Under the pieces are notes generated by a model, which did no database searches, was not told the DNA's origin, and saw nothing but the letters and a program-made list of their open reading frames with translations. 52,400 nt of DNA from a virus. Lineage: Duplodnaviria > Caudoviricetes. The position numbers were made by a program, and so were the translations under genes. The DNA lies in the IMG/VR virus record IMGVR_UViG_3300019360_000102, positions 1 through 52,400 of that record, one strand, 5' to 3'. This document shows, piece by piece, positions 23,500 through 48,910 of the stretch (position 1 is the stretch's first letter; the number at the start of each line of letters is the position of its first letter).

Positions 23500-23715
23500 T
23501 CATTCAGACTTGTGATCAAGGTCATTTGGAGAAGGCGCAGTGCCCTTAGAGACGAATACAAGTGCCGCGTTGTCCTCGGAAAGTTCAATGAAGCACGCGA
23601 CAACACCGTCATGCATGCCGAATTTGATGTGCTCGCGTTCAACGTTACCATTCAACCAGTCCACTAGCGCAATGGTCGCGACGGCCTCTATCTGCTCGAA
23701 GTTCGGCTCACTCAT
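23500..23715 (-). CDS. Hypothetical protein
   Basis: 71-aa ORF with ATGA overlap onto the beta' gene stop. Confidence 0.5.
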   Translation of the reverse strand: MSEPNFEQIEAVATIALVDWLNGNVEREHIKFGMHDGVVACFIELSEDNAALVFVSKGTAPSPNDLDHKSE

Positions 23716-26700
23716 CCAATTTTGACTTCGTCACTGAGGTTGACCTTGCCGGCATTGATGGCCGACAAGGCATGCTGCTCCGTCGGAAAGCTGTGGACCT
23801 GCTTGGGTGCGCGGTTCTTTGCCTGGTAGAGGCCGAGCACGAACTCATGCTTCGGCACCGGGACAACCTTCTCATGATCCTTGATGCTGAATAGCATGCG
23901 ACTAGGCATGAGGCGCTCTCGGACATCTTTGACGGCATCCGGCAGGGCGGGAACATGGACGTTCATTGTGTCCTGAACCACAATACCTTCTGAAGTGGCG
24001 AAGGTGAACGGGCCCGGGATGGTGACATCGTAAGCTTCCATTCTGCCCGGCAATTTTCTTGCACTGACCACGGGCAGCCAATCAACCGTGGTGTCCTCGA
24101 CGAGCTCGCAATATTCTCGGCAATCCGCACGATCTATGGCGGATTTACGCCACTCATCCGTGTATTGCCGGGCAAGTGTGCGTGTCCAGTAACCTCGGGT
24201 CTTGGAGGTCGAAAGCTCGCCGGCCTGAAACTTGTTAGTACCCCGCTGTTTCGCATCAGGCCAGAGTGACTTGAAAGTCTCGATCAATACCTTGTGCAGA
24301 TGCCAGGGATATGGAACTAGGTCGCTGGCCTGGTACTTGGATTCAAGATCCACGTGCAGCAATCCTTCCGCCAGGGTAGCTTGCTTCCGCGCTAGGCTTA
24401 CACGGAATCCAGTCCTGGCTACCATGCGGGCGAAATCCGGCGTGCTAAAGTGACATAACCAGGCGGCCTTGTGGCTGGACGAACTTCGATAGTGTGTCAC
24501 GCCGACACGAATCCCGAGCCGCCGACCGAGTAGCCGGACGTTATCCACCAAGTCCGGGCTAGAGGTCGCGTAGTTGATCTGCAATTGAGGCTTCTTCTTT
24601 CCGCGGGTGATCGCGACGGTCCCGTCGGTGGACAGGAGGCCGTCCAGGAGGCCAAGCAGATGCTCTTCCGGGGCGTTGAGGCTGAAGCTTGGAATACGCT
24701 TGCTCAGCGCGCCTTCGCCAATCTGCTGCTTGAGCCAGCGGCCAAACCATGCACAACTGACCCGCACCTTGGCCATTTTGTGTTCAGTGAACCCCTTGGC
24801 GACATGACGTATGAAATCTCCGTGGGTCAGAAAATTCAAATTGTCGGTCTTGGTCAGATCCATGAGGGTCTGCATATTGTCATCCTCGGCGCCGCACAGA
24901 TATATTCCGTCCTGATTGTCTACCCAGCCATCCCCGATTATCAGGCCAAGGAACTGGCCGAACTGCCGATCCAAAGCTACAGATCTTTCATGCGGCAGCT
25001 TGGCGCTACCCACGCCTTTCATGCCAGTTACCAAAATGTTTGAAACGACTCGATCTCCGGTATGAACCTTTCTAATCTTGGGTACGCACAGACGGTGAGC
25101 CGCCTCCGGGTTAACCGTGACGAGGGTACCCTCTCGGTACGCCACCAAGGAATGGTCTGACGAAACCACGAGGTTGGTCTTGTTGTATAACCCGATGTCC
25201 CACATCTCCAGGTCTCGGTGTACTGAAAATTTGGTGACCGGGAACCACCCGTGTTGGCCGGTCTGACGATCCAGACCGTACATCAGGACGCCCGCCGGAA
25301 CGTCCCATTCTGAGACCGTGGCGGACTTCTTGATCTCGGATCCCGGGACTATGGGCATGTCTTGGATATTGATGTTACCCTCGAACGTCATGATCTTTTG
25401 ATTTGTAATCATGGCACCACTGTAGGTGGTCACAGAAGACAAGTCAAGATTTGTTCGTATCAATGTCGAAGTCAGCAGCGAGTCTCCGTCGTGATCGGCC
25501 GCCAGACCTGTGCCTACCAACGGGTTAATAAGAATAGTCTTGCCAGAAATGATCTTGGCGGTGCCGCCGACCACGTTGAACTTGTGCCAGGCGGGCGCGC
25601 GGCTGTACATTGTGGGGCGATCCACTATCTCCATGTCAAGATACTTACGAGCCAAAGTGTTACGGTCATTGATCGCCTTGACGGCGTCGGCCGGCGAATG
25701 ACCAGCGCGAACCAAACGGCGCTGGACGTGCGGGGCGTAAAGCTTCCAAGCCATGTCCTCCGGTAGACCGATCTCGTCTAGCTGAAGTGAGGGGTCTAGT
25801 CCGATGACGCCACGGCCAACGTAATCAACCGGTTTCGATATGAGGGTACGGGTCAGCGCGGAAAATTTCGGGCTCGTGCCTGTAATTTTGCGAAGAAAGC
25901 CACTGACGCCGCGCTCCAGCGTCTTGGCCTTGACGGGGTCGCCGTAGCCGTAGACGGCCTTGATGGCATCATAGACGTTGATCCGGTTGTGCCCGGCGCC
26001 CTGGGAGCCCAGCTCGGCCTCCAGATGACCGTGGGCATCCCGGATGTCCACCAGGTCCCGGTACAGCTCATTGGCGTCGCCGGGAATGAAGGTGTCGCCA
26101 GCTACGTTGAATGGGCGGAACTTCGGTGGGATTACCGGTATCCTGGAAAGCATCAAGTCCTTGGGGTGTATGCCCGAACGGCGGAAACCCTCGACGAGTC
26201 CCAAGATCCTGATGGCGTCCGGCCGTCTGGTCTTCTTGCCGGAACGTACGACCGCCATATTGGTCTCATGAAGATGATCAAGATCGAGCATGTTGAGTGC
26301 GTGCTCGATAGCCTCCGGACCGGTCGCGGGCGGAAGGCCCACTGCGGCTTCGGGAAGCCGCGATGACTTCTTGACCGTGGGTAGCCGGTTGGTCAGGACG
26401 TTCATGACCGAGTTACTGAACCCGGCGTTCACCGGGCTGCTGATGACGCGCTGATACCATTTCTCGGCGGGACCCGATGGGTTCTTTAGCTGTTTGGCCA
26501 CGTCGCCGATAGCGGCCGCGTAGTTAGTGCCGGCGGACTGAAGGCCGGCCTTGAAGTCGGGAAGTGCGTTCCGGTTGGCCCAGTCCTGCGGACGGCCGGC
26601 CAGGGGCTTGGAAAAGGGGTTGATCTTGTCGCCGATCACCTGCGTCGTGGAAGGAGCCGTAAGCGGGGCGTCGATCTTCATGAGGTCGCCCACCACGCTG

Positions 26701-26816
26701 GACTGCGTAACAGGATCGGCTAAAGCTAGCTGCTGCAGCTTACCGACCAGATCGGGAGCCGCAGGCTGAGTAGCGGCCCATTTGACCAGGCCGTCAATGA
26801 TCTCAACATCGTTCAT
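23712..26816 (-). CDS. RNA polymerase beta' catalytic fragment containing an intein
   Basis: RpoC-like motifs IPVIPPKFRP, NELYR, KPVDYVGRGVI, GLPEDMA, RAPAWH and ADHDGD...TMNVHVP. Confidence 0.93.
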   Translation of the reverse strand: MNDVEIIDGLVKWAATQPAAPDLVGKLQQLALADPVTQSSVVGDLMKIDAPLTAPSTTQVIGDKINPFSKPLAGRPQDWANRNALPDFKAGLQSAGTNYAAAIGDVAKQLKNPSGPAEKWYQRVISSPVNAGFSNSVMNVLTNRLPTVKKSSRLPEAAVGLPPATGPEAIEHALNMLDLDHLHETNMAVVRSGKKTRRPDAIRILGLVEGFRRSGIHPKDLMLSRIPVIPPKFRPFNVAGDTFIPGDANELYRDLVDIRDAHGHLEAELGSQGAGHNRINVYDAIKAVYGYGDPVKAKTLERGVSGFLRKITGTSPKFSALTRTLISKPVDYVGRGVIGLDPSLQLDEIGLPEDMAWKLYAPHVQRRLVRAGHSPADAVKAINDRNTLARKYLDMEIVDRPTMYSRAPAWHKFNVVGGTAKIISGKTILINPLVGTGLAADHDGDSLLTSTLIRTNLDLSSVTTYSGAMITNQKIMTFEGNINIQDMPIVPGSEIKKSATVSEWDVPAGVLMYGLDRQTGQHGWFPVTKFSVHRDLEMWDIGLYNKTNLVVSSDHSLVAYREGTLVTVNPEAAHRLCVPKIRKVHTGDRVVSNILVTGMKGVGSAKLPHERSVALDRQFGQFLGLIIGDGWVDNQDGIYLCGAEDDNMQTLMDLTKTDNLNFLTHGDFIRHVAKGFTEHKMAKVRVSCAWFGRWLKQQIGEGALSKRIPSFSLNAPEEHLLGLLDGLLSTDGTVAITRGKKKPQLQINYATSSPDLVDNVRLLGRRLGIRVGVTHYRSSSSHKAAWLCHFSTPDFARMVARTGFRVSLARKQATLAEGLLHVDLESKYQASDLVPYPWHLHKVLIETFKSLWPDAKQRGTNKFQAGELSTSKTRGYWTRTLARQYTDEWRKSAIDRADCREYCELVEDTTVDWLPVVSARKLPGRMEAYDVTIPGPFTFATSEGIVVQDTMNVHVPALPDAVKDVRERLMPSRMLFSIKDHEKVVPVPKHEFVLGLYQAKNRAPKQVHSFPTEQHALSAINAGKVNLSDEVKIG
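23970..25481 (-). mobile_element. Intein (504 aa) with LAGLIDADG homing endonuclease
   Basis: Insert splits ADHDGD|TMNVHVP; block B VSSDHSL; FLGLIIGDG and LLDGLLSTDG; blocks F/G AYDVTIPGPFTFATSEGIVVQD. Confidence 0.9.
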
Positions 26817-26920
26817 GTTTTAGCAGCCTTCATTATGTTGTCCAGCTTCCACAATGGTCGCAGATTTATCCAGTGTAAGCAAGTCTGCTGAGCAGACTCG
26901 ACACGGCAAACGAGACTTGA

Positions 26921-26966
26921 TAGCAAAAGAAAAGACGAAGCCCCGGGCACGTGGCCCGGGGCTTCG
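26921..26966 (-). terminator. Intrinsic terminator
   Basis: CGAAGCCCCGGGC-N5-GCCCGGGGCTTCG followed by TCTTTTCTTTT on the minus strand, after the stop at 26972. Confidence 0.8.
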
Positions 26967-26971
26967 CACGA

Positions 26972-27821: not shown

Positions 27822-27845
27822 CTGTAAGCCTTTGTCCTGATCAGC

Positions 27846-28106: not shown

Positions 28107-28173
28107 GCTGATAGATGTTACTTCTTCAATGAGAAAACCCGCACGGGTCTGACAAAAACTTATTCGGTCACGG

Positions 28174-30534: not shown

Positions 30535-30858
30535 CTACACGATGCGACTTTTGGCCGTGAAGTGCTTGTCCTGGTATTCGACGGCCCCCGGCTCGTCGAC
30601 CCTGACCACAATACCCTTTCGGCGCGTTACGCCGTATCCATCGTCGTAAGACCATAGGGCCAGCCTAGTCTTGACGGGGCCGACATCCGTGAAGGCGGTG
30701 CATTCGTGCAAACCGTCTTCAACATCCGATAATTCCACTCCGGCACGAACCAGATTACAATCACCCATCTGCCGTTTGAGCAGGCCGTGGAAGTAGACGA
30801 AGGGCCATGAGAAGCCCTGCCCGGCTGACTCGGTGTAGAGTTTAATCAGTTTTGACAT
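30535..30858 (-). CDS. Hypothetical protein
   Basis: 107-aa ORF with short overlap onto the RNAP gene. Confidence 0.55.
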   Translation of the reverse strand: MSKLIKLYTESAGQGFSWPFVYFHGLLKRQMGDCNLVRAGVELSDVEDGLHECTAFTDVGPVKTRLALWSYDDGYGVTRRKGIVVRVDEPGAVEYQDKHFTAKSRIV

Positions 30859-32803
30859 TTTTCTTGGGTGGCGCCATCAGCAGATGTGGAGGCATTGCCT
30901 CCTGTCCGGCCAGGATCGCCCTGAACTGCTTTTCGGTAAGGCCCAGCAACTTCCGAATGGCCGTCTCGGCCGCGGGGTTGGGAACCTTGAACGGAAGATG
31001 AATGGCGCCCCACCGGTTATTACCGGTCATGGCGTCATCGAATAGACCACCCTTCACAGACTCGAGAGTCTCAGGATTAACCAATTCTCCGTTCTTCACT
31101 TCGATCGGGTCTACTGCATCCAGATCCTTATCGGTCCAGAATGATAAACGTTGCACCCCATCGGGAAGCTTGCGAGCATGGAATCCTGCCCCATTGAGCA
31201 AGGCTTGAAATTTATTGAAGGCGAACGGCACGCCGGGATTCTTGGGCTCGTGGCCGGAACGTAGAGCTCGCCAGTACTCGTCGTTACGCTGTCCACGAAG
31301 CGTGGCGGCATCGCGCAGCACCCCGTAGGCGCCGGCCGACAAGAGCGAATGACTTTCAAGTCCCGAGAGACGCTTGGACTGGGCCAGCTGGGAGCCGCCC
31401 TTGGTTGGTTGCTCGTTTGCATCGTAACTTCCTTGTCCCCTGATACTTATCTTTGAAGATGACGTGTGATGCAGCTTCAGGACATGACCGACGCCGACCG
31501 TGATCGGATTCTCTAACTTGCGGTTCTCCTGCGGGTCGAAGACTTCTTCGGTCTCGGACAGACCATGCTTGTCCAGCTCGCCTTTGACGAAGTCATGCCA
31601 TTTGTCCCCGTTCATGTTAAAACCTGGCAGCCTATAGGGGGCGCCGGCCTTGTGGGCCGCCTTGCCGAGCAGCAGCTCATACAAGAGCGAGTTGTTCACG
31701 CGACTGGGAAGGCCCAGCGGATTGAGCAGCATGTCAAGGGAGCCTCCGTCTGTGGTGCGGGGCATGTGGTCGTCCGGGATGATGAGGCTGACCACGCCCT
31801 TCGTTCCACTACGTAAGACGAGCTTGTCACCGACCTTGGTGGGCTGCTGAACTTTGACGTTAACCCTGACGCCCTTGGCGAGCTTCTTCACGTCCGTTAC
31901 GATCCCATCCTCTTCCTCGTCCCAAGTGGTCGAGGCGTCGGCGCGGGCGTTCTTCATGTGGCTAGATAGCTTACCCAGTTGAGCCTGCTGACTGGAGATG
32001 ATCTTCGGACGGGTGGCTAGTATGAGGGGGTGACCGTGCTTGACCGTTTGCCCAGCCTTTACGACGCCGTCATCGTCGAGGGTGTCGAGTTGCTCCTTCG
32101 TGAATTTGTTTGGGAAGACGCCGATGTGGTGACCCTTGCCACCCGTGACGCCCCGCTTGTATTCGGCGTCGAATCCGTACATGGCCTCCTGAGATAGTCG
32201 CTTAGCAAAAGCTTGGCTGATCACCACGGAGTCATCCATCGACCATCCTTTATAGGGGACCAAGCCAATACGGGCGTTAGCTCCCATCGCCAAAGTGCCC
32301 TTATCATCCGTGAAGTTGCTGACCGATATGGGCTGGTCTTTACGCACCATGTCGCCGGCCTTAACGATGGCACGACTGGTTAGACCAGTCTTCCGGTTCA
32401 TCGGGAAGTTGTCGTACAGGCCGACCCGGCGGCGCTTGCCATCCTGGTACTCCAGCTCAATATGCTTGTCAGTCACCCGGTGTACCCGGGCATCTTGATC
32501 GGCACGGAGGGCACCCATGTGCTGACCATAGTAATCGTCAAATGACCGCCCGTCTGGGTCCTGATCGATGGCGTTCTGGACCAGGGGTGCCTCGCGGTTC
32601 ACGATCGGCATAGCCTGGTTGATGAACCTGGCGCCGTAAAAGAGCCGCGGCCCGGCAACCGCGTTCTGTAGGGGGATCATGTTGACATGACTCCCAAAGA
32701 ACTTGGACGGGCTATCTAGCTCGTAGTCAATCTCGTGGGGGTCTTGTACCTCCTCGATCTTACTGTTGCGGATAACCGCGCGTTTAGGCACAGGGCTCTG
32801 CAT
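30842..32803 (-). CDS. RNA polymerase beta C-terminal half fused to beta' N-terminal segment
   Basis: RpoB-like MIPLQN..NQAMP, GTLAMGAN, GWSMDDSVVIS, GDKLVLRSGTKGVV, LNPLGLPSRVN, LKLHH, QPTKGG; then RpoC-like EVKNGELVNPETLESVKGGLF..RWGAIHL. Confidence 0.93.
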   Translation of the reverse strand: MQSPVPKRAVIRNSKIEEVQDPHEIDYELDSPSKFFGSHVNMIPLQNAVAGPRLFYGARFINQAMPIVNREAPLVQNAIDQDPDGRSFDDYYGQHMGALRADQDARVHRVTDKHIELEYQDGKRRRVGLYDNFPMNRKTGLTSRAIVKAGDMVRKDQPISVSNFTDDKGTLAMGANARIGLVPYKGWSMDDSVVISQAFAKRLSQEAMYGFDAEYKRGVTGGKGHHIGVFPNKFTKEQLDTLDDDGVVKAGQTVKHGHPLILATRPKIISSQQAQLGKLSSHMKNARADASTTWDEEEDGIVTDVKKLAKGVRVNVKVQQPTKVGDKLVLRSGTKGVVSLIIPDDHMPRTTDGGSLDMLLNPLGLPSRVNNSLLYELLLGKAAHKAGAPYRLPGFNMNGDKWHDFVKGELDKHGLSETEEVFDPQENRKLENPITVGVGHVLKLHHTSSSKISIRGQGSYDANEQPTKGGSQLAQSKRLSGLESHSLLSAGAYGVLRDAATLRGQRNDEYWRALRSGHEPKNPGVPFAFNKFQALLNGAGFHARKLPDGVQRLSFWTDKDLDAVDPIEVKNGELVNPETLESVKGGLFDDAMTGNNRWGAIHLPFKVPNPAAETAIRKLLGLTEKQFRAILAGQEAMPPHLLMAPPKKNVKTD

Positions 32804-32809
32804 CCCCAT

Positions 32810-32899: not shown

Positions 32900-33139
32900 T
32901 TACCTATCGAGTAGTATCTGGGCCGCGCGCTTGTCGATCGGGAGGCAACTACGCTCCGGGTCAATTGGCACCAGCTCACCTGTATCAAGATCCTGCATCC
33001 TCATGACACCCGGACCCTTGGGGCGAACTTGATAAACCGTACCGTTAATGGTGAAGTAGCCGCCTGGCTTTACGTCACGGATTTTCTTGGGATTCATTTC
33101 GCTGAAAGTTAGATATTGCGCGATTGACTGATTCTGCAT
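32900..33139 (-). CDS. Small hypothetical protein (SH3-like pattern)
   Basis: IRDVKPGGYFTINGTVYQV..DLDTGELV. Confidence 0.5.
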   Translation of the reverse strand: MQNQSIAQYLTFSEMNPKKIRDVKPGGYFTINGTVYQVRPKGPGVMRMQDLDTGELVPIDPERSCLPIDKRAAQILLDR

Positions 33140-34852: not shown

Positions 34853-34889
34853 CACGTTTATGGTGCCACGGCGAGTGCCCGCAAGCAAG

Positions 34890-39278: not shown

Positions 39279-39794
39279 CTATTGCGCCTTAACCAGGCGG
39301 TCCGTGAACAAGATACCATCAAGATGGTCAACCTCGTGTTGTATAACCCGGGCGATCATACCAGTGAAGACAGCCTCGTACGGCGCGCCGGAACGGGCGA
39401 GCCATTTCACCTTTATACTAAGGGGGCGATCAACTTCCCCGGTGATACCGGGTTGGCTGAGGCAGCCCTCCATCATCCTGGAGGTCGGCGAGTCCACCGC
39501 GGTGATCTCGGGGTTGATCAAGACCATTGGCAGCCAGTCATTTAGGTCGTCAACCTCACGGCCTTCCATTTCCATCTTGGAGGAACGCCTCGAATTGCGT
39601 GGATCAATCACCGCAATACGGGTGGCGACGGCAACCTGATTTGCAGCCAAGCCGATACCTCGTGCCTCGTACATGGTTTCGAGCATGCTATCGATGAGAT
39701 TCTGCACTTCAGGCGTATGTGGATCCGCGACGGGCGTCGCACGTTGACGAAGTACAGGGGCCCCCTTGAGCACAATCGGAAGGAAGTTTGGCAT
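39279..39794 (-). CDS. def: Peptide deformylase
   Basis: All three signature motifs: GIGLAANQV, EGCLS, QHEVDHLDG. Confidence 0.97.
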   Translation of the reverse strand: MPNFLPIVLKGAPVLRQRATPVADPHTPEVQNLIDSMLETMYEARGIGLAANQVAVATRIAVIDPRNSRRSSKMEMEGREVDDLNDWLPMVLINPEITAVDSPTSRMMEGCLSQPGITGEVDRPLSIKVKWLARSGAPYEAVFTGMIARVIQHEVDHLDGILFTDRLVKAQ

Positions 39795-39877: not shown

Positions 39878-41080
39878 TTACACTTCGCCGTCTTGACGAT
39901 AGTAGTACTTGCCGCCCACGATGGCGAAGTCACGAACATCCACGTAAGAGAACACGGTGTCCTTCTGTTGCGTATCGACGTCGGCAATGATGAAACCATT
40001 ATTCCATTTCTGAGCATCCGTGTAGCTGGCGCTACGACGGTGCATGGCGCCGCACTGGTGAAACTCGTACGCGCCGTAGGCGATCGACGTGTTCGACCAG
40101 ACAATGTGCTTATGGTGGTGCCCACAGAACCCAGGGAGCCCGAGCTGGGCGCCTTCCGGGAAGTGATGGGCCACCAGGGAGTTCCAGTACACCTTATAGT
40201 TGCGCGCCTGTTCCTTCTTTATGTCAACTTCCCGCCAGGCGGCGAGATCGGCCTTGCCGATGTAGTTGATGTGGAACTTGTCCAAGCCAAGCAGAGTCGA
40301 GACGGACATACCGTGCAGATCGGCCAGCACGACGCGCATGGCCGGCGAGTTGTCCGCCAAATGCCGAACCAGGCGGAACTCATGGTTACCTTCGACCAGG
40401 TCGATCTGGGCATTCGGCGCCGCCTTGCGAAGTGGAGCCAATACGTTCTCGTGTACGAACTTGATGCGACCGACCACGTCCCATTCGCGAGGATCGACGG
40501 TGTACTTGCCGAACTCCGGGAGGTCAAACAGGTCGCCGTTGATGCAAATCACGTCGGGCTGGATACGCTTGACAGCGTCAAGTGCAACTCGCAGTACAAA
40601 TGGATCGCAAGAGCGATCGTGGATGTCGCACAGGCCAATGAGGGTCTGGTATCTCGACTTGTTGACCCTGACGAAACGCTCGGCGTAGTCCGCGCGTATC
40701 CGGTTCAACTCACGGTAGTGATCGTGCGCCGCGTGCTTCGCGGTCTCGCGTTCCAGCTTATGCTGCTGGCGCGTGAGGACAATGCCAGCTTGCCGTTTGA
40801 ATTCGTGAAATGTCCCGAAGAATCGATTCCATACCGACTCGGAATACTTACCGACGTTGCGGTAGTAGTTCCGCGAGATAACTTGTTCGGGATCTGCGAG
40901 TGCAACCCTGCGCAGGTCGTTGATACAATCCTGCGGCGTAGCCGAGTAGTCCTGCTTGTCCGATGATTCCGACATCGGAATCTTCGGACCTTGGTACGCG
41001 AGCGTGCGACCTTTGGGTTGGTGAGGGCGCTGAGGCTTGACGGGAGGTTCGACAATAGCTGTCGTCTTCTTTGATGCCAT
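39878..41080 (-). CDS. Calcineurin-like metallophosphoesterase with N-terminal helical domain
   Basis: DIH, NGDLFD, GNHE, AHH and GHHH motifs. Confidence 0.88.
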   Translation of the reverse strand: MASKKTTAIVEPPVKPQRPHQPKGRTLAYQGPKIPMSESSDKQDYSATPQDCINDLRRVALADPEQVISRNYYRNVGKYSESVWNRFFGTFHEFKRQAGIVLTRQQHKLERETAKHAAHDHYRELNRIRADYAERFVRVNKSRYQTLIGLCDIHDRSCDPFVLRVALDAVKRIQPDVICINGDLFDLPEFGKYTVDPREWDVVGRIKFVHENVLAPLRKAAPNAQIDLVEGNHEFRLVRHLADNSPAMRVVLADLHGMSVSTLLGLDKFHINYIGKADLAAWREVDIKKEQARNYKVYWNSLVAHHFPEGAQLGLPGFCGHHHKHIVWSNTSIAYGAYEFHQCGAMHRRSASYTDAQKWNNGFIIADVDTQQKDTVFSYVDVRDFAIVGGKYYYRQDGEV

Positions 41081-41086: not shown

Positions 41087-41116
41087 AATTTAACCTGAAG
41101 TTGTCGGCCGTGTCAA
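41087..41116 (-). promoter_or_regulatory. sigma70-like promoter, predicted leaderless
   Basis: TTGACA-N18-TAAATT-N6-ATG(41080). Confidence 0.75.
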
Positions 41117-41894: not shown

Positions 41895-42290
41895 CTACTT
41901 CACGATCTGCTTCAAACAGAACGCAACCTGGTGTTCAGCCAATCCGTAGAACTTGCCTAGCTCGTAGATGTCGGTGAAACAGGGAATGCCGCGCTCCTTG
42001 GCCCGACTAAATTCTTCACGGGTGCCGGAGCTGCGTTCCCAATCTGGAGTCAAGAAAACCGCGTCACAGACATGCAACATAGACAGATCGCCATTAAGCC
42101 AGACTTGATCAGGAAGGGAGTCCTGAAAATGAGCAGTATTGGCGTGAGGACATACCGCGGCCAGCCCGGGATATGCGATTGCGAGCGACCAGACCTGAAG
42201 GGCGGCACGTTCGGCATTACGCACGTTTTCCGCAACCGCAAAGTGTGATTTGCCCCGAAAGGGGCCGGCAATATAGACGAGACCGTTCAT
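41895..42290 (-). CDS. DUF4406/nucleoside 2-deoxyribosyltransferase-like protein
   Basis: VYIAGPFRG, CPH, CDAVFLTPDWERSSGTREE; start moved to MNGLVY. Confidence 0.75.
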   Translation of the reverse strand: MNGLVYIAGPFRGKSHFAVAENVRNAERAALQVWSLAIAYPGLAAVCPHANTAHFQDSLPDQVWLNGDLSMLHVCDAVFLTPDWERSSGTREEFSRAKERGIPCFTDIYELGKFYGLAEHQVAFCLKQIVK

Positions 42291-42294
42291 GAGT

Positions 42295-42906
42295 CTATGG
42301 AGTTTCCTTCCGCCTGAAGTAACTGGGCGGAAGTACGTGAAATACCCAAGGTACCCCAAGGCTGTCGGATCCGCCCTTATCGCCTCGGTCGCCCTTATCG
42401 CCGCGGCCGTTACCTTGAGTACCCTTACCGCCGTTGCCATTCCGGTTGCCCTGATCCTTACCGTTACCTTCGCCCTTGGTGAGTTTGCCGGTAACGGTCT
42501 GTCCGTTGTTGAGCTGACTCATTACAGCCTGCAGCTGCTCATGCAACTCACGGCTGTACGGTAGCTTGAACAAGCGGGGCTCCGGGTGAGCGGCGTTATA
42601 GCCGAACGTATGCAGGAAAAGATTGTGGCGTGTGGGAGGATGTTCGATCAGGATGTAGATACCGCCGGGCGACCCGATAGAAGGGCTTGGCTCTTTAATC
42701 ACGATATGCCTAATCGTAATAACCGTGGGCATATTCTTGTGCGCTGCCCACCCCATAATGGAATCTAGCGACAAGGACATAGCGACGCAGAATCCGAAGA
42801 ACCCGGCGATGATGCCGGTCCGGACCCAAATGTGCTTGGTGTCTCGAATGACCCAGAATACAGCCGCGAACAGGAGCAGCAAGAAAATAGGGAACGCAAT
42901 CAGCAT
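42295..42906 (-). CDS. Membrane protein, third gene of the MotA/TolQ-type module
   Basis: Two N-terminal TM helices, EPRLFKLPYSRELHEQL, Gly/Asn/Lys-rich tail. Confidence 0.65.
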   Translation of the reverse strand: MLIAFPIFLLLLFAAVFWVIRDTKHIWVRTGIIAGFFGFCVAMSLSLDSIMGWAAHKNMPTVITIRHIVIKEPSPSIGSPGGIYILIEHPPTRHNLFLHTFGYNAAHPEPRLFKLPYSRELHEQLQAVMSQLNNGQTVTGKLTKGEGNGKDQGNRNGNGGKGTQGNGRGDKGDRGDKGGSDSLGVPWVFHVLPPSYFRRKETP

Positions 42907-42909
42907 AGA

Positions 42910-43521
42910 TCAATATGGTGATTCGCCATCCTGGTGCTGGCCGTCATTGAGGATACGGGCAGGCAGCCGATTGATGTCGGCGATGGTGACGTGGTTGTTC
43001 TGATTGGCGAGCGTAAACCGAAAGAAAGTAATTTCTTCTCCAGTGCGAGTGAACTCGTGTTCCTCGGATGCCGGCATCGCGTAGGGTTTGATCTTGATGA
43101 GCCTTACCTTGGCCTTCAGCGGAGTGGGCGTCTTGTTCATATTGTACGAATGCACGTTGACGACGAACTCCCCGGGGACGAAGCCACGCACCGTTGCGAT
43201 CTCCTCGTTGACCGGATTGACCACCTTACCTTCGGCGTTGACCTCGGTACGTCGGGCGCCAAGGCAATCGCGGTTAAGGCTGCAGAGACTTCCGTCGCCA
43301 CCTTCGCGGCTGGAGAAGCCGATGCGACGACCCTGGGGATCTTGAATCCACAGGTCCAGATCTGCATCGCCCTCCCAGGTCAACACGATCTCGTAGATCG
43401 CGTTCGGCTTGTAGGCTGATTCCGTCGGGGTGGTGTGACGGATCAGGCTGGCGATCACCACGAATACCATCAAGAAGCAGAACAGCGCGTCCAGGTAGGA
43501 CGTTGCGTATTTATTGTTCAT
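42910..43521 (-). CDS. MotB/ExbD-like TM anchor plus YfaP/DUF2135-like domain
   Basis: YLDALFCFLMVFVV (Asp at TM start); LTWEGDADLDLWIQDPQG; NEEI..GEFVVNVHSY. Confidence 0.65.
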   Translation of the reverse strand: MNNKYATSYLDALFCFLMVFVVIASLIRHTTPTESAYKPNAIYEIVLTWEGDADLDLWIQDPQGRRIGFSSREGGDGSLCSLNRDCLGARRTEVNAEGKVVNPVNEEIATVRGFVPGEFVVNVHSYNMNKTPTPLKAKVRLIKIKPYAMPASEEHEFTRTGEEITFFRFTLANQNNHVTIADINRLPARILNDGQHQDGESPY

Positions 43522-44002
43522 GGTTGGTGTGCAACAGAATATGGCGTTGCAGTGTAAGCGGAATAGCTGCGCTCATGCCAACCACGGTCGTGTAAAGTGC
43601 GGTACAGCAACCGGAGTACAGCTGCTTCACGATCATGCTCACGTCGGGCGCGCTTGTTTGCGTACCGAGGGCCTTGTCCATCATGATGCAGAATCCGATC
43701 AGGGTGCCGAGCAAGCCTAGACCCATAAAGGTCTGCGCCGCGTACTCGATGTGCTCCATACGCTGTGCGAGCCAGTCAAAACGACCGGATCTACAAGCTT
43801 CGCGGAAGCCCCGGCGATCAAACTGACGGGCAACCCAGAGCAGGTAAACTGACACCGGGAGATAGGTCGCCATGATGGTCACGCAGATGTATGACGCATC
43901 ATTCTTGATGATCTTTGTGAAAAGCCCCTGGGTGCCGGCAAGAACACATGCGGTCATCACGACAGCCCAGACGATGAAGCACTTTAGGAAGTTAGATTTC
44001 AT
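43511..44002 (-). CDS. MotA/TolQ/ExbB proton-channel family protein
   Basis: FMGLGLLGTLIGF and TALYTTVVG motifs; four hydrophobic segments. Confidence 0.85.
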   Translation of the reverse strand: MKSNFLKCFIVWAVVMTACVLAGTQGLFTKIIKNDASYICVTIMATYLPVSVYLLWVARQFDRRGFREACRSGRFDWLAQRMEHIEYAAQTFMGLGLLGTLIGFCIMMDKALGTQTSAPDVSMIVKQLYSGCCTALYTTVVGMSAAIPLTLQRHILLHTNHEQ

Positions 44003-44055
44003 TTCAATATAAGAGGTCTCACACAGAAGCGCCACTGTCAAACCCCGGCCTGCAG

Positions 44056-44760
44056 TTAGTCGGGTATGCCCAGTGTCTTACCGTGAAGGTCCTCGGGACT
44101 TAGCCAGCGATAGACGCCCTTCTTCCTGTCCTTGAAGCGTTGGTATATCTTCCCGTCCGAGCCGATCTTGGTGCCCCAGGCCGCACGGGTGTCGACGCCG
44201 GCCCTAGAAGATTCTGGTCCAGAGATCACGTCGATGAACCCAAAGCTACTCGGATGAAGTGCTTGTGCTTCTTGCGATATAGACTCCTCGCTGGGTAGCC
44301 CGCCAGGCCCCATTTGGGTGATCCGGCGGGACTGCTCTACCAAGTGCATCGGGTTGATTTCTTCGAGCGGACTTGAAAGTGGGTTACCGATCAGCAACCC
44401 GGTGGCATAACCGTCGAAGTGGCTTGGCTGAAGAGCTTTGAGATTACGCATCCGCGAAAGTCGCCTCATGGCATTTAGTCGCAACTTGCCGGCGTCCAGA
44501 TCGACACGCTCAGCCATGAGCTTATCGGGACCCAAAATGGTGCGGTACATGAGTGCGTCCCGCTCGTCCGGGTCGGCCTCGCCGCGGTTGACCGCGATAA
44601 GCTTGCGGGTTGCATGCAGGATGGTGTCAATATCTACGGATACATCCGTAGGGTCATGCGCCAACTGCTTCATCGGCTTCGGGAGGGCCGATGACTGTTT
44701 CACCGCGGGTTCCTCTTTGAGGCCGAGGGCCGTGATGAGCTTCTGTCGAAGCTTGTCCAT
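44056..44760 (-). CDS. RNA polymerase beta middle fragment (fork/rifampicin region)
   Basis: DERDAL.YR and NPLSSPLEEINP..SRRITQMGPGGL..HPSSFGFID..PES..GV align to RpoB DDIDHL and SQLSQFMDQNNP..KRRISALGPGGL..HPTHYG. Confidence 0.92.
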   Translation of the reverse strand: MDKLRQKLITALGLKEEPAVKQSSALPKPMKQLAHDPTDVSVDIDTILHATRKLIAVNRGEADPDERDALMYRTILGPDKLMAERVDLDAGKLRLNAMRRLSRMRNLKALQPSHFDGYATGLLIGNPLSSPLEEINPMHLVEQSRRITQMGPGGLPSEESISQEAQALHPSSFGFIDVISGPESSRAGVDTRAAWGTKIGSDGKIYQRFKDRKKGVYRWLSPEDLHGKTLGIPD

Positions 44761-45296
44761 TACAGCGCGGTAGAAGGTCCGCGTGCTGCATTCATCCGCG
44801 CCTGGTTACCCCAGGATTCCCAAAATCCTCCCGGATAATTCCACCATCTTGGAAATTGTCGCTTGAAGTCCTCATAACCTTTACCAGAGTGCCGCTGTAT
44901 CGATTTAGACCAAGCCCCGCGGGCGTCGAAGGGATTGATGTCACGGCCCAATTGGCCAATACTTCGGCCAGCGCCCTGCCAGTTACCCTGGATTACATTG
45001 CCTAGTGCGTCAACGGCAGATCCGGCGGCACCGGTAATACCGCTCTCGCGGCCAGTCCCTTTACCGCCAGCGCTGACGAGACCTAGCAGGGGAGAGAGCA
45101 CAGTACGCGCAGCCCCGCCGAGTGTGCCGCCAACTGCTCCCATGAATGAAGGTTTGACGCCGGGGGAGAACTGCCGCTCGCCAGTCAAGTAATGCGTTAT
45201 GCCCGCCGGCTGCTGGGCTGCTGGCCTAATGGCCGGCACGCCCATGTCGGGGACGTTGATTACGTTGGCCAGCTTGAGCATCTGAGAACTGCGCAT
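44760..45296 (-). CDS. Gly-rich protein with K-x-A motif
   Basis: MRSSQMLKLAN; TAATG coupling to the beta-middle gene. Confidence 0.6.
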   Translation of the reverse strand: MRSSQMLKLANVINVPDMGVPAIRPAAQQPAGITHYLTGERQFSPGVKPSFMGAVGGTLGGAARTVLSPLLGLVSAGGKGTGRESGITGAAGSAVDALGNVIQGNWQGAGRSIGQLGRDINPFDARGAWSKSIQRHSGKGYEDFKRQFPRWWNYPGGFWESWGNQARMNAARGPSTAL

Positions 45297-45302
45297 GTCA
45301 AG

Positions 45303-45331
45303 AGTTTAACTCAGCCGTTTATGAGTTTCCA
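45303..45331 (-). promoter_or_regulatory. sigma70-like promoter, predicted leaderless
   Basis: TGGAAA-N17-TAAACT-N6-ATG(45296). Confidence 0.6.
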
Positions 45332-45807
45332 GCGGAATTCTCACGCACGTTTTGTAGTGCATGTACCTTTCTTGCACGATACAAGACAGGCTTCCTGCCG
45401 ACATGTACCTTTCTTGCATGATACAAGACAGGTTTTCTGCTGAATCGCCTGGTATCCACTAGGTACTGCAGCCACGTAGAAAGCCTAAGATACGGTCGCC
45501 AGAACCAATACGGTCTGCGGGTCATACAGGCGACATTATTCATGCCGAGCAGGTTGAAGTGATAAGCGCGTGTCGCCTGGTGCCCACCCGTACAGTCGGG
45601 GAAGCAGCCAAATACCAGCATGCCGCGTATGCCACACCAGGAGTCCGATGTGGTCAGGCCGGCCGCAAACAAGACGGTCCGAGATGCTTCGGAGTCGGGG
45701 TACATGCGGTTAGACCGATAAAGGTAGATCGCCTTGCTAGAGGCGTTGACCCACCGCGTAGACACGAAGAACCTAATGCGTAGCAATGATTTGAGATACT
45801 CGATCAT
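45319..45807 (-). CDS. Hypothetical protein
   Basis: Fills the gap in the operon; contains an in-frame 14-aa duplication. Confidence 0.4.
   Translation of the reverse strand: MIEYLKSLLRIRFFVSTRWVNASSKAIYLYRSNRMYPDSEASRTVLFAAGLTTSDSWCGIRGMLVFGCFPDCTGGHQATRAYHFNLLGMNNVACMTRRPYWFWRPYLRLSTWLQYLVDTRRFSRKPVLYHARKVHVGRKPVLYRARKVHALQNVRENSAGNS
45360..45440. repeat. 42-bp tandem duplication (about 2 copies)
   Basis: CATGTACCTTTCTTGCA(C/T)GATACAAGACAGG at 45360 and 45402; encodes RKPVLY(H/R)ARKVH twice. Confidence 0.9.
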
Positions 45808-46276
45808 GGAAAGGATATTGGATGGTGACCACCGGGGACTTCGGGCGATCAAGCTTGGCTAATCCCATCTCCATAAGCCATCGGATGTTGTCCAGGCATC
45901 GGGCATGGGTACGGGCGAACTCTCGGCCGAGGACATGTATCGGCTCGCCGCCCGGTTGGCTGTATACGCTGGCGACCGCCGTTGTGTCGGCCATAGCAAA
46001 GCAGTGAACCGCCGTACCGTTCTGGAACGACATGGTGGCGAACTTTAGCCACTGATCGGGTAAGGTCACAACCCCAGTTTCCTCGCGAAACTCGCGCGTC
46101 ATGGCATCGATCGGAGACTCGCCGACCTTAGTGTGCCCGCCGACACCGTTAAAGCGATCTTGTTGCCAGTCTGGGCGCTGCTTTTCAATCAGTACGACGA
46201 ATCTGTTACGTACTTCCGGACCCTCGAAACAGAATCCGAGAACGTACTCTTTGTCATTGTCGGGAATGTCAGACAT
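45773..46276 (-). CDS. Nudix hydrolase
   Basis: Nudix box GGHTKVGESPIDAMTREFREETG. Confidence 0.92.
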   Translation of the reverse strand: MSDIPDNDKEYVLGFCFEGPEVRNRFVVLIEKQRPDWQQDRFNGVGGHTKVGESPIDAMTREFREETGVVTLPDQWLKFATMSFQNGTAVHCFAMADTTAVASVYSQPGGEPIHVLGREFARTHARCLDNIRWLMEMGLAKLDRPKSPVVTIQYPFHDRVSQIIATH

Positions 46277-46361
46277 TGTAGTAAATAAGGTATGGTTTAA
46301 CGGACACTATGAGGAATTTGATACCGGTATTGCTTATACCGCTGCGGATCCGAAGGAGTCG

Positions 46362-47170: not shown

Positions 47171-47254
47171 AGTTTGACATCATGGTCCGGGTGAAGCCAG
47201 GAAAATTTGGGATAATCGGGCAGGATATGACGAAGGAGGATCCTTGGCTGACGC

Positions 47255-48910
47255 TCAGCGAGAGCCAGGTTCAGGCTGGTAGGCTCGGGTGAGGTCCATG
47301 TCGGGGAGCCGCTTCCGGAAATCGTGAATGTCGATTCGGTATATTGACTGCAATCCTCGCCACCCTGGTTGGTAGTTGGATTCGTAGAGGTCACGGGCGC
47401 ATTCCTTTGTTGGGCAGCCAAGGATGATCTTGTGCTCGTCGAAACGGCCGGTCGTAGGGTCGACCTGGTTTACGATCCAGACATTGTCCGTATGAAGATC
47501 AGGTCCGATGAACACGTCCAGGTGATCCCCGTCGGCGCCTTCGGTCTTTTTCAAATAGCCGTAATGGGCCTTCATCTTGATCGCCCACTTGACGCCTTGG
47601 CGGTCCACGCCTCGGCGCCATGATCCCTTGGGGTTCTCGATGGCGATGTCCAGGCCGTGTAGACGTACATGCCCCTTCCGATAATTTCCAGAATGCTGCT
47701 GCGGCTTGGTCGGTAGCTTCTGACGGTTTTTCTCAGAAGTGGCTGCGCGATGGGCAGCTAGGTCGAGTTCCTTCTTGGTCCGTACGGCCGCGGCCATCTT
47801 GCCGAAGCTGCCCGATAACGCGGTCGATACCCCGGGGTTGATGCCGGGCATCTCGCTATGGATGACCGCACGAATGTCGTCGGCCAGCTGCTCCAAGGAT
47901 TCGTTGATGTCGATGCCGGCGTCGAACTGCTGGTTGAGGAACAGCGCGATAGCGATCAGGTCCTCTTTGGAGAGATCCTGGCCAGCCTGGTCGGCCGCGC
48001 TGCCCGGCGGGGGTCCCAGGTCGGGCGTGTCTTGGAAGGCGGTGTCAGGGGCAGGTCCTTGGGCGGTACCACCGAACTGTTCGCTGGCGCCCGCTAGGCT
48101 GCCGGCCTGAAACGCGCTGGCCATCTTCCTGTGGGACAATAGATCCGGCATGGTCTTCTGGACCGTACTCAGATGCAGGTATGTATCCTTCAGGGCAGTC
48201 CTGATGGATTCCTGTTTCTGAGTGTGTGAGGCACCGGGATCAGGCTTGCGTACGAGACGTTGATATGCCTTGTCGAACACGCGGCGGTCGTAGCCATCCT
48301 GGTTGGCCTTCAGGATCTCGGACCCCCAGAGTTGCTCCAGCTCCTTCTCGTCGACGCCCAGGTCCTTCATGAGGCTATGCAGTCGCAAGCTGGCCTGTCC
48401 GATGTCCATCTTGAACAACCCGGTCTCCGGCTCCAAGCGAATCCGAAAGCTGTGGCCAGCACCTCGCTTGGTATTAAAATGAGTCTCCAGTTCGCCAGAG
48501 TCTTTCCGGCGCGTGTAGGCGCCGGGCAGTAGGCGGGCCTGGTGGATGGTAGCGTATTCATTTCCGCCGTGAATGAATGTTCCGCGGTTGGTCAGATATG
48601 GAACTTTGGCGACTGTTTGATGTTGTTCATCCAGAAGATTTCCTGTCTTATCATCAAACAGGCGAAAAGTCCCACGGAGCTTGCGATGCAAATAGTCTCC
48701 CTTTAGGAGCGCCTCTTTCTGCTCGTCGATGGTGAACGGCTCTTCGCTATCATATTTAAGATCATGCAGTTCGAGACGAACTCCACCATAGGATTGGGGG
48801 AACTGCCGCAATACGGCTTCATGCATCCCTTTGAAGATGTTGCCGCGAAGCGTGTCATGATCCTCCCAGTCACGCAGCTCGGCCCCATGTGGGTAGATGT
48901 CATCAGCCAT
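47255..48910 (-). CDS. RNA polymerase beta N-terminal fragment fused to an inorganic pyrophosphatase-like (InPase) domain
   Basis: RpoB-like KVPYLTNRGTFIHGGNEY..HQARLLPG; C-terminal GNYRKGH..IENPKGS..HYGY..DGDHLDVFIG..DEHKIILG. Confidence 0.88.
   Translation of the reverse strand: MADDIYPHGAELRDWEDHDTLRGNIFKGMHEAVLRQFPQSYGGVRLELHDLKYDSEEPFTIDEQKEALLKGDYLHRKLRGTFRLFDDKTGNLLDEQHQTVAKVPYLTNRGTFIHGGNEYATIHQARLLPGAYTRRKDSGELETHFNTKRGAGHSFRIRLEPETGLFKMDIGQASLRLHSLMKDLGVDEKELEQLWGSEILKANQDGYDRRVFDKAYQRLVRKPDPGASHTQKQESIRTALKDTYLHLSTVQKTMPDLLSHRKMASAFQAGSLAGASEQFGGTAQGPAPDTAFQDTPDLGPPPGSAADQAGQDLSKEDLIAIALFLNQQFDAGIDINESLEQLADDIRAVIHSEMPGINPGVSTALSGSFGKMAAAVRTKKELDLAAHRAATSEKNRQKLPTKPQQHSGNYRKGHVRLHGLDIAIENPKGSWRRGVDRQGVKWAIKMKAHYGYLKKTEGADGDHLDVFIGPDLHTDNVWIVNQVDPTTGRFDEHKIILGCPTKECARDLYESNYQPGWRGLQSIYRIDIHDFRKRLPDMDLTRAYQPEPGSR

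Follow-up and report, generated by a model that had tools for sequence, protein, structure and literature searches.

A probably secondarily split, bacterial-like RNA polymerase of the Arash lineage in a large-phage genome fragment

In the available text of the jumbo-phage reviews (PMC7824862, PMC13282480) multisubunit RNA polymerases (RNAPs) are treated for the phiKZ type only, and the first of these reviews argues that the split subunits of this type are relics of multi-subunit enzymes that predate the last universal common ancestor (LUCA). Here we describe the polymerase genes of IMGVR_UViG_3300019360_000102, an entire IMG/VR virus record of 52.4 kb (hereafter the window) that represents about 49% of the genome by CheckV estimate. 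An earlier note on this DNA, made from the sequence alone, had reported a bacterial-type RNAP divided among at least four dispersed genes. Our analysis makes it quite probable that these are four of at least five large-subunit genes of an Arash-type, bacterial-like two-barrel RNAP of a large phage, which was split secondarily. The window has a G+C content of 53-59%, its substantial open reading frames (ORFs) all lie on the minus strand, and tail and baseplate genes occupy the low coordinates. In public protein data its products are assigned to a contig of 86.8 kb.

A tblastn search against phage genomes matched 21 records at E<=1e-5, the best being Salmonella phage Arash and three Vibrio phages. 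Arash gp206 (1525 aa, annotated 'RNA polymerase subunit beta') contains all four window pieces in order and in one frame, and the C-terminal half of beta' is encoded separately as gp216 (606 aa). The same layout is found in Vibrio phage D69, where the fused product is a 1527-aa 'hypothetical protein' (VPHD69_0261); both phages encode sigma factors. The lineage is therefore already sequenced and annotated in isolates, and uncharacterised: in the available text of the Arash paper the proteins are annotated and were detected in virions by mass spectrometry, without an analysis of architecture (PMC10585845). A literature search (supplementary tables outside its reach) found no account of the lineage's architecture, its fragmentation, its same-site inteins or fusions of RNAP to inorganic-pyrophosphatase-like (InPase) domains. 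It yielded only the genome papers of Arash and YerA41, together with reviews on phiKZ-type enzymes.

Like the phage enzymes, cellular large subunits tolerate both fission and fusion, as in the cyanobacterial and plastid gamma|beta' and the archaeal B''|B' and A'|A'' arrangements. Beta and beta' are fused in Helicobacter and Wolbachia, and E. coli RNAP has reportedly been reconstituted from subunit fragments.

Polymerase pieces and their fused relatives

The four ORFs, named pieces 1 to 4 (P1 to P4, or P0001 to P0004), were all found on the minus strand where the earlier note had placed them. Two of its start positions need correction: the ORFs begin at 48961 and 32809, and the Met codons at 48910 and 32803 lie inside them; the public gene call also starts P1 at 48910 (551 aa). 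The pieces and their parts are as follows.

47255..48961, minus strand: P1 (P0001, 568 aa), N-terminus of beta with linkers and InPase (phmmer, profile, AlphaFold model and gp206 colinearity)
48167..48874, minus strand: beta1/beta2 (protrusion/lobe) of P1, aa ~30-265, corresponding to E. coli beta 50-~245 and gp206 aa 24-203
47309..47701, minus strand: InPase (type I inorganic-pyrophosphatase-like) of P1, aa 421-551; PF18823, E 4.8e-51
44056..44760, minus strand: P2 (P0002, 234 aa), beta fork region, corresponding to E. coli beta ~420-620 and gp206 aa 265-469
30842..32809, minus strand: P3 (P0003, 655 aa), C-terminal half of beta plus the first ~70 residues of beta'
31094..32809, minus strand: beta part of P3 (aa 1-~572), flap/SBHM, double-psi barrel (GDKLVLRSGTKG) and beta C-terminus; Rpb2_6
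30842..31093, minus strand: tail of P3 (aa ~573-655), first ~70 residues of beta' joined to beta; colinear with gp206 to aa 1104
23712..26816, minus strand: P4 (P0004, 1034 aa), beta' catalytic barrel with intein; Rpb1_2 and PDB matches
26328..26816, minus strand: N-terminal extension of P4 (aa 1-163), found in the split form only; without a recognised family
25476..26327, minus strand: N-extein core of P4 (aa 164-447), beta' clamp and catalytic barrel up to AADHDGD; Rpb1_2 and PDB matches
23973..25475, minus strand: intein of P4 with LAGLIDADG homing endonuclease (aa 448-948, 501 aa); PF14528 (LAGLIDADG_3), E 3.2e-8
23712..23972, minus strand: C-extein of P4 (aa 949-1034), TMNVHVP... to the end; ends where gp206 ends and is 87% identical to the related contig L074

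As the earlier note had stated, P1 to P4 run through beta and then beta' in the alignments, colinear with rpoB-rpoC, and are separated by other genes, the gaps of 2.5, 11.2 and 4.0 kb holding 5, about 24 and 9 ORFs. They are indeed readily alignable to bacterial RNAP, above all P3 (Rpb2_6, E 1e-55) and P4, whose aa 164-447 matched E. coli beta' 179-471 in the PDB with E 1.4e-33. Pfam, the mapping named in that note as a check, was run on the 64 minus-strand window ORFs of at least 50 aa and placed P2 in Rpb2_3 (E 6.9e-8), P3 in Rpb2_6 and P4 in Rpb1_2 (E 4e-13); Rpb1_1 stayed below threshold in P4 (E 2.2e-4, 21.1 bits vs a 39.7-bit cut-off). P2 also matched E. coli beta 420-569/422-571 in the PDB (E 8.5e-7), and its ATG overlaps the stop codon of the upstream ORF 44760-45296. 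In the PDB (E 7e-49) the partners of P3 were RpoB 625-1144 and T. thermophilus beta 511-907, and the barrel lysine motif GDK...GTKG is intact, with 'VGDKLVLRSGTKGVVS' aligned to 'VGDKMAGRHGNKGVIS'. The last ~80 residues of P3 correspond to gp206 ~1043-1104, and a hidden Markov model of this tail matched Salmonella RpoC aa 34-61, the very start of beta', weakly (9.4 bits, E 1.4e-4 in a 2-sequence search); read by eye, the tail lacks the Zn ribbon of bacterial beta'. In P4 the Mg-binding triad 'AADHDGD' (aa 441-447) is aligned to NADFDGD, and the beta' alignment resumes at ...MNVHVP with aa 949-1031.

P1 is assigned to the N-terminus of beta over aa ~30-265 only: the Pfam search gave no RNAP family for it, and its aa 421-551 are InPase. 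By phmmer against the PDB, aa 32-263 matched RpoB N-termini (E 6.7e-7); a profile of the P1 family (18 homologues) gave RpoB in 36/36 matches (best E 5e-8), and tblastn against gp206 gave E 2e-19. The AlphaFold (AF2) model has a mean predicted local distance difference test score (pLDDT) of 69 and is confident at aa 30-265, 330-370 and 430-565, with low-confidence linkers at aa 269-329 and 372-429; its top Foldseek match was 4kbj, the B1-B2 domains of M. tuberculosis beta (E 2.8e-11). Across the 18 homologues the beta-N part holds 35 invariant columns, including a PxLTxRGTFIxxGxE motif. Neither the InPase fusion of P1 nor the intein of P4 was in the earlier note, which had rightly taken P4 for the catalytic part of beta' and overlooked the 501-aa insertion inside it. 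Judged by their sequences, the pieces bear the marks of a two-double-psi-barrel RNAP, namely beta1/beta2 and fork, the beta barrel lysines and the beta' Mg triad.

The pieces are about 30% identical to gp206 and align to it as follows.

P1 aa 19-221: gp206 5-203
P2 aa 42-234: gp206 265-469
P3 aa 26-636: gp206 493-1104
P4 aa 178-447: gp206 1164-1440
P4 aa 949-1034: gp206 1438-1525 (end of gp206)

The pieces are thus orthologous to and colinear with the Arash and D69 enzyme, and P4 ends where gp206 ends; a separate gene for the C-terminal half of beta' (beta'C) and a phage-encoded sigma are likewise seen in members of the lineage. On these grounds the window RNAP can be assigned to an Arash-like lineage. 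The single 1525-aa chain of Arash has no intein, and InPase was not found in that phage; in the window the corresponding region is spread over four genes in 25 kb, P1 bears InPase, and P4 bears both an intein and a 163-aa extension.

A scan of IMG/VR for relatives gave 28 loci. The pieces are colinear in one frame in 18/28 and split in 10/28; one of the former (L026) has its ORF broken inside an insertion. Fused ORFs measure 1484-1545 aa (beta::beta'N), 2065-2115 aa (complete beta::beta') or up to 2659 aa with inteins. Complete fusions without intein (2065-2115 aa) are those of L007, L009, L010, L015, L022 and L027, and those with a same-site intein (2646-2659 aa) are L008:8462-16441 and L012:8585-16525. 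The 10 split loci are the closest to the window, with a best-segment P3 identity of 43-58% vs 31-41% for the fused loci. In none of them was P1 or P2 found within 10 kb of P3; P3 is free-standing in L003 and L004 and still joined to the P4 N-extein in the other eight.

Whole records were read behind three split loci, G001 (185.7 kb with terminal repeats) and G004 being complete and G002 (167.6 kb) 86% complete by CheckV. The coding-strand order P1, P2, P3, P4, beta'C is kept in all three, over up to ~60 kb. P1, P2, P3, P4 and beta'C lie at 103, 107, 131.5, 162 and 1.7 kb in G001 and at 5.3, 7.6, 20.7, 78.8 and 95.7 kb in G002; the order in G004 is P1, P2, P3+P4N, P4C, beta'C. As the same split is kept across the clade, an assembly error can be discounted as its cause. 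Free-standing homologues of P3 are common in public data, with 594 at E<=1e-10, and among the 120 listed most are ~640 aa long and all are >=54% identical.

A tree was built from P3 positions 13-575 (29 rows, query-anchored columns, quick IQ-TREE) and rooted with Salmonella and Staphylococcus RpoB. Of the phylogeny suggested in the earlier note, this covers P3, with bacterial RpoB as the outside sequences. The phage lineage, with Arash and D69, is monophyletic against bacterial RpoB with a support of 100 in the Shimodaira-Hasegawa-like approximate likelihood ratio test (SH-aLRT). Of its three clades, two consist of fused forms throughout; in the remaining one (support 97) the fused loci L005, L026, L029 and L030 are sister to the split forms (support 88). 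The fused beta-beta' ancestor proposed in the earlier note is thus borne out by gp206 and the 18/28 loci in one frame, by the junction inside P3 and by the nesting of split among fused forms. Independently of the tree, P3 holds the end of beta and the start of beta', which is possible only from a fused gene; fragmentation is therefore secondary, derived from such a gene.

The cuts themselves could be located closely. The last residues of P2, '...GIPD', fall at a conserved FPD loop whose length varies, and P3 takes up directly after it, with no residues lost; a profile over this junction aligns unbroken to E. coli beta 422-776 and puts the boundary at about beta 620-630. By a weak alignment (E 0.14), AR9 beta-N chain 7s00_c ends within ~10 residues of this cut, and in a junction-profile search for AR9/phiKZ chain boundaries those chains were absent from the best 60 matches. 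Judged by the lengths of B'' and B', the archaeal B''|B' split also lies nearby. Because of the AR9 chain end and the archaeal cut, P2|P3 is not regarded as new, and the earlier claim of a cut at new places is retained for P1|P2 (between beta-N and fork) and P3|P4 (inside the beta' N-terminus), which look new. We know of no cellular counterpart of a beta-N|fork cut or of a cut at ~beta' 130-150. P1|P2 lies after the beta2 lobe part, and P1 has gained ~300 residues of linkers and InPase. P3|P4 is flanked by '...ILAGQE' and 'TGPEAIEHALNMLDLD', which by eye correspond to E. coli beta' ~130 and ~151-168; in fused or joined relatives only a few residues separate P3 aa ~639 from P4 aa ~165. The 163-aa N-terminal extension gained by P4 is conserved in L074 and matched no Pfam family; neither it nor the P1 linker showed homology to anything in G001, G002 or G004. 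P4 ends ~85 residues past DxDGD; it aligns to cyanobacterial gamma 183-475 but stops ~60 residues short of the gamma end. P1|P2 and P2|P3 are common to the split clade, and P3|P4 is confined to the subgroup of the window. A candidate beta remnant upstream of P3, for which the gp206 tblastn had read through a stop into an in-frame 79-aa ORF (32900-33139), was rejected as noise on inspection.

As the earlier note had said, beta'C, alpha and sigma are not in the window: Pfam on the 64 ORFs matched no alpha, omega, sigma (including Sigma70_r2 and r4) or Rpb1_4/5 family, and tblastn with Arash gp216 and the beta'C of G001, G002 and G004, as well as with the G001 sigma, gave a best E of 0.10. Rpb1_5-bearing beta'C ORFs of 758-1018 aa were found in all three relatives searched (G001, G002, G004). 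G001 encodes a 230-aa protein of the sigma-70 family (r2 E 4.8e-9, r4 E 1.2e-5), Arash gave two Sigma70_r2 matches, one above cut-off and one weak, and G002 and G004 gave no sigma match at threshold.

With phiKZ and AR9 the window shares a phage two-barrel RNAP of several polypeptides without alpha, of which phiKZ and AR9 package one version in the virion, and a beta' cut after the catalytic barrel (PMC7824862); beta would also be cut after the fork near the end of AR9 7s00_c, if the weak alignment (E 0.14) is right. It differs in that 0/21 tblastn records were phiKZ-like at E<=1e-5, with bacterial RpoB matched down to E 4e-35, which agrees with the distinct phage lineage proposed in the earlier note; P2 likewise gave E 0.14 against AR9 7s00_c and 8.5e-7 against E. 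coli beta. Moreover, relatives of the window encode sigma and phiKZ-group phages, according to the available text of PMC7824862, do not, which argues against a place in the phiKZ/AR9 type, a type also marked by a phage-specific fifth subunit (gp68-like); the window enzyme probably uses a sigma. Finally, one piece of the window joins beta to beta', additional cuts fall within the lobe region of beta and the N-terminus of beta', and the P3 junction demonstrates that the split is secondary.

Selection on the pieces was estimated from nonsynonymous (dN) and synonymous (dS) divergence (Nei-Gojobori, NG86) against L074, a 19-kb contig from the metagenome scan that is syntenic with window 41080-22978 and whose P3 is 90% identical.

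P3: dN 0.073, dS 1.22
P4 N-extein: dN 0.137, dS 1.55
P4 core (last 283 codons of the N-extein): dN 0.085, dS 1.46
P4 C-extein: dN 0.085, dS 2.09
Neighbouring genes: dN 0.078-0.19, dS 1.4-2.1

The resulting dN/dS of the pieces, about 0.06 with a range of ~0.04-0.09, is equal to or below that of the neighbours; it is approximate though far below 1, dS being near saturation (pS 0.60-0.70). P3 is the best-conserved gene of the L074 syntenic block (90% vs 33-88% for the others), and at E<=1e-5 the RNAP pieces and one GNAT gene, and almost nothing else, are conserved against G001, G002 and G004. The RNAP pieces are conserved islands in fast-changing accessory DNA, and by these sequence comparisons they are under purifying selection and remain functional.

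Intein and fused domains

RNAP inteins at conserved sites are known from archaea and eukaryotes and must splice out for function (PMC1635734). The intein of P4 resembles those of archaeal A'/A'' and eukaryotic RPB2/RPA2/RPC2 in being a LAGLIDADG intein at a highly conserved site beside the active site, and differs in lying directly past the Mg-binding DxDGD of a phage beta', with a Ser start and Gln-Asp before Thr, and in being polymorphic between phages whose P3 is 90% identical (window and L074). CrAss-like phages reportedly also carry inteins in RNAP subunits.

The intein is placed between the third catalytic Asp of AADHDGD and TMNVHVP, with Ser448 at position 1, Gln-Asp at its end and Thr949 as the +1 nucleophile. 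It is absent from Arash gp206 and from L074, where the empty site reads DHDGDQMNVHVP, and the site is also empty in L029 and L030. The L074 homologue of P4 (612 aa) reads ...SADHDGDQMNVHVPALPDAVKDV..., and the window reads ...AADHDGD, then the intein (S...501 aa...VVQD), then TMNVHVPALPDAVKDV...; from this alignment the element is therefore an insertion with exact boundaries, the +1 residue being Gln in L074 and Thr in the window. Same-site inteins occur in five relatives (G001, G002, L008, L021, L026). All six, including that of the window, start with Cys or Ser and precede Thr; the C-terminal residue is Asp in 5/6, and 1/6 ends in Ser-Asn. The window intein does not have the canonical C-terminal His-Asn. 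Asp- and Gln-terminated inteins can splice. By eye it shows an 'SSDH' block B, a C-terminal 'YDVTIPGPFTFAT...GIVVQD' and two LAGLIDADG-like motifs, where we take 'SSDH' and 'YDVTIPGPFTFAT' to be block B (TxxH) and block F. As the intein lies between the Mg triad and the remainder of the barrel, the RNAP would be active only after splicing.

Other inteins of the family lie in P3 of G002 and in beta'C of G001 and G002, and intein or endonuclease families were found in 33/120 listed P4 homologues. About five in-frame insertions of 300-440 aa were observed in the single RNAP gene of L026 (7568-18043) and three of the same size range in the P3 part of L030 (8477-16006), an unusual density of inteins for one gene. 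In G004 (L067:395-11984; record 131395-142984), from the sister group, the cut in beta' coincides with the intein site: the ORF for P3+P4N closes 13 codons past DxDGD, a 518-aa LAGLIDADG ORF follows, and the C-extein lies in a 323-aa ORF 6.6 kb on. This arrangement may be a split or disrupted intein. The P4 homologue of G001 (L045:2107-5493) has DFDGN instead of DFDGD before the intein, which would replace the third catalytic Asp, and its N-terminal extension carries a CxxC...CxxC motif resembling a Zn ribbon.

The InPase domain of P1 scored 172.6 bits against a cut-off of 26.8 bits and covers profile positions 3-133 of 135. 'IENPKGS' and 'DGDHLDVF' are present in it, which we take to resemble the type I PPase signature. 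A portal protein of solved structure (9b41, E 3.9e-30) resembles it at the C-terminus, and 462 phage records match it; annotations among the 40 listed include DarB-like, DNA methylase, portal, minor head, internal head and virion proteins. In the whole relative nearest to the window, G002, it is P4 that bears InPase, at its N-terminus, and not P1. It was not found in Arash, D69, G001, G004 or G005 by a search that is weak, its positive control having given no signal, and tblastn also found none in G001 and G004; InPase as a constant part of the lineage was accordingly rejected as a candidate. As it is sporadic in the lineage, InPase is not part of the core enzyme.

P1 homologues numbered 174 at E<=1e-5 and P4 homologues 304 at E<=1e-10, 120 of each being listed. 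Among those listed, the following domains were found on the same protein.

InPase: P1 12/120, P4 11/120
2H phosphoesterase: P1 17/120, P4 2/120
NUDIX: P1 3/120, P4 17/120
DUF6624: P1 1/120
GH108: P1 1/120
Rpb2_3 (P1 joined to P2): P1 2/120
Glucosaminidase or LysM: P4 3/120
Rpb2_6 (P4 still joined to P3): P4 26/120

The G001 homologue of P1 (1401 aa) has added an Acb1-like 2H domain and DUF6624, and a P4 homologue of 1759 aa (P0340) combines InPase, weak classical-PPase and MazG matches, NUDIX and beta'N. The repertoire is that of phage polyvalent proteins (Iyer et al. 2017; PMC5512222), which share the InPase, 2H, NUDIX and lysozyme-type domains seen on P1 and P4 homologues. It is different in that the anchor module is a fragment of a multisubunit RNAP and in that the window's own P1 bears one extra domain, its homologues bearing up to five or more.

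Neighbouring genes and transcription signals

Two further features lie close to the pieces.

45773..46276, minus strand: free-standing NUDIX ORF between P1 and P2; PF00293, E 2.7e-7
26935..26967, minus strand: strong terminator-like hairpin (14 pairs, 11 GC, T-run) just upstream of P4

The GNAT acetyltransferase (36156-36581, minus strand; PF13302, E 7.4e-8) is the only non-RNAP window gene kept in G001, G002 and G004. It stands upstream of P3 in these and in L074, directly in G004 and at a few kb in the others, and is 82% identical in L074. Also upstream of P3, a 550-aa ORF (33311-34963, minus strand) is conserved in G002 (35%) and L074 (74%); it had no Pfam or PHROG match, and Atlas gave nothing usable (scores <=0.81, TM <=0.22). 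Between P2 and P3 the minus strand carries accessory genes at 39279-39794, 39878-41080, 41895-42440 and 43511-44041, the set comprising a peptide deformylase (E 1.3e-47), a metallophosphoesterase (phrog_20266, E 1.8e-104), a DUF4406/DUF7768 protein and a MotA/ExbB-like protein.

At 265-7214 (minus strand) five of six consecutive ORFs (199, 455, 464, 297 and 453 aa) resemble swappable receptor-binding modules on one adaptor, the row being interrupted by a 433-aa ORF (864-2165). Four of these modules have an N-terminal domain like that of T4 gp9/gp10 (PF07880), followed by a differing beta-propeller, NHL or beta-helix; the fifth (4960-6321) has propeller repeats only.

Motifs of the form TTGAC(A)-N17/18-TAnAnT were seen at 41087-41116 (minus strand) and upstream of ORFs 9313-11322, 13136-15142, 8979-9269 and 864-2165. 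They end 5-8 nt before the ATG, and a Shine-Dalgarno sequence is mostly absent, which suggests leaderless mRNAs from these promoter-like motifs. Shared promoters for the pieces were considered and rejected, the number of sigma-70-like sites being at shuffle level.

Host-like rpoB genes were also met in records of the phage collection labelled Staphylococcus, Listeria, Enterococcus or Salmonella phages (matches H5-H12 and H19-H21). Several of these mislabelled records are 'unverified' and unannotated, and two Salmonella bacterial contigs in the collection likewise hold such genes; the rpoB-bearing records are likely bacterial contamination of the collection.

Proposed function, alternatives and meaning

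In the scheme we propose, an rpoB-rpoC-like pair would have fused to one beta::beta'N gene, which is still a single ORF in Arash and most relatives; some relatives have a complete beta::beta' fusion. In the clade of the window the fused gene would then have broken at three points, after which variable accessory genes spread the pieces apart. The polypeptides would be translated separately and assemble non-covalently, the catalytic beta' piece becoming active once the intein directly past the third catalytic Asp has spliced out; the C-terminal half of beta' (bridge helix, trigger loop) and sigma would be encoded outside the 52-kb fragment. Virions would probably carry the enzyme and eject it along with the DNA to transcribe the early genes, and InPase on the beta-N piece probably clears pyrophosphate at the polymerase or acts on a nucleotide signal.

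Several observations weigh against this scheme. The beta'C and sigma genes are absent from this window of ~49% of the genome, so a complete enzyme can only be presumed for the phage. The tree comes from a quick search, has SH-aLRT as its sole support measure and is rooted with two bacterial sequences, and it places the beta of phage YerA41 among the split forms on a 2.9-long branch, a placement that is unreliable. The near saturation of dS and the failure to find InPase in the five relatives named above count on the same side, and the Gln-Asp end of the intein in place of His-Asn could mean slow or impaired splicing. Neither terminator-like sites (23 vs 18.0 +/- 4.4 in shuffles) nor sigma-70-like sites (11 vs 10.1 +/- 3.6) are enriched in the window, and any transcription units are therefore tentative.

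That the window enzyme is packaged and ejected is, by analogy, rather likely, because virion data from Arash and YerA41 come together with the polyvalent-type fusions. In Arash virions gp206 was the protein most detected by mass spectrometry (3516 spectra), with gp216 (1210 spectra) and a sigma factor also present (PMC10585845), and YerA41 virions contain RNAP subunits and sigma (PMC7354516). Earlier work describes InPase as a virion component and proposes that it removes PPi to aid early transcription (PMC5512222). The alternative that fares best is a working split RNAP made only in the infected cell, to serve middle or late genes, and unpackaged, with InPase, NUDIX and 2H serving transcription or nucleotide housekeeping; we consider it possible though unlikely. 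The virion evidence indeed stems from the fused form of Arash and not from the split clade, InPase is sporadic, and phiKZ-like phages also own a non-virion RNAP (PMC7824862). However, the orthologous Arash enzyme tops the virion mass spectrometry (PMC10585845), the InPase, 2H and lysozyme-type GH108, glucosaminidase and LysM fusions match the repertoire of virion-delivered polyvalent proteins (PMC5512222), InPase recurs under portal, minor-head, internal-head and virion-protein annotations, and G001, G002 and G004 each have a single RNAP set.

Packaging would leave room for a further, tentative proposal, in which the RNAP fragments double as carriers of polyvalent virion-ejected effectors whose insertion at permissive surface loops broke the beta::beta' gene. 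The beta-N and beta'-N pieces might then, equally speculatively, bring domains that hydrolyse pyrophosphate, nucleotides and cyclic signals (InPase, NUDIX, MazG, Acb1-like 2H, LigD phosphoesterase), as well as cell-wall domains, into the host along with the polymerase. The very varied C-terminal enzymes on P1 homologues, and the fact that P1 is the piece least similar to bacterial beta, could also mean that the beta-N::InPase protein has ceased to be an RNAP subunit and taken another job, for instance as a free effector or as a protein that binds host RNAP or acts as a decoy for it. This seems very improbable, as beta-N is conserved (35 invariant columns in the 18 homologues), P1 stays just upstream of P2 in all three relatives read whole, and no second beta-N copy was found in G001, G002 or G004.

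Even less credit can be given to a covalent rejoining of the pieces into a gp206-like chain, by split-intein trans-splicing or an event at the RNA level. Inteins are rife in the family, as the insertions of L026 and the beta'C of G001 and G002 illustrate, and G004 has beta' cut exactly at the intein site with endonuclease ORF and C-extein set apart. Nevertheless, Hint or intein halves were found neither at the ends of P1, P2 or P3 nor at the start of P4 (Pfam and junction alignment), so trans-splicing at the three junctions was rejected; P2 end and P3 start are flush at the loop with no extra sequence, the P1 extension consists of linkers and InPase, and stretches of 2.5-11 kb, which hold many ORFs and terminator-like hairpins, separate the pieces. 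That the pieces are decaying remnants of a broken gene from which no enzyme is made, as its fragmentation, the 501-aa insertion with atypical C-terminus in the catalytic motif and the lack of beta'C might suggest, is hardly tenable and was rejected, since every piece is an intact ORF with clean boundaries, omega is far below 1 (~0.04-0.09 vs L074) and no higher than that of the neighbours, P3 is the most conserved gene of its block, the same pieces persist in three diverged relatives amid almost wholly different intervening genes, hundreds of stand-alone homologues exist, and the missing beta'C may be read against a window of only ~49% of the genome.

The preferred reading, a split, functional and probably packaged enzyme, points to a second family of phage multisubunit RNAPs, abundant in metagenomes and closer to bacterial RNAP than the phiKZ/AR9 type, in which at least some members (Arash, D69, G001) encode sigma and which has been known from annotation and one virion proteome. 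The series from full beta::beta' through beta::beta'N plus beta'C to five dispersed genes maps permissive cut sites, and the Asp-ending, polymorphic intein at the Mg triad offers a splicing-dependent switch on a polymerase. The recurrent fusions of InPase, NUDIX and 2H to RNAP fragments would be the first direct architectural support for the 2017 proposal that links virion InPase to early transcription, and they also suggest a new route of effector delivery. The fusion junction of P3 proves, as far as sequence can, that a split phage RNAP can arise secondarily, which bears on the primordial-relic argument made for phiKZ-type subunits (PMC7824862). If the carrier proposal is true, the enzyme would be both an early transcriptase and a delivery platform for anti-defence or takeover functions, and would show by an example from nature that a primordial origin is not required for split phage RNAPs.

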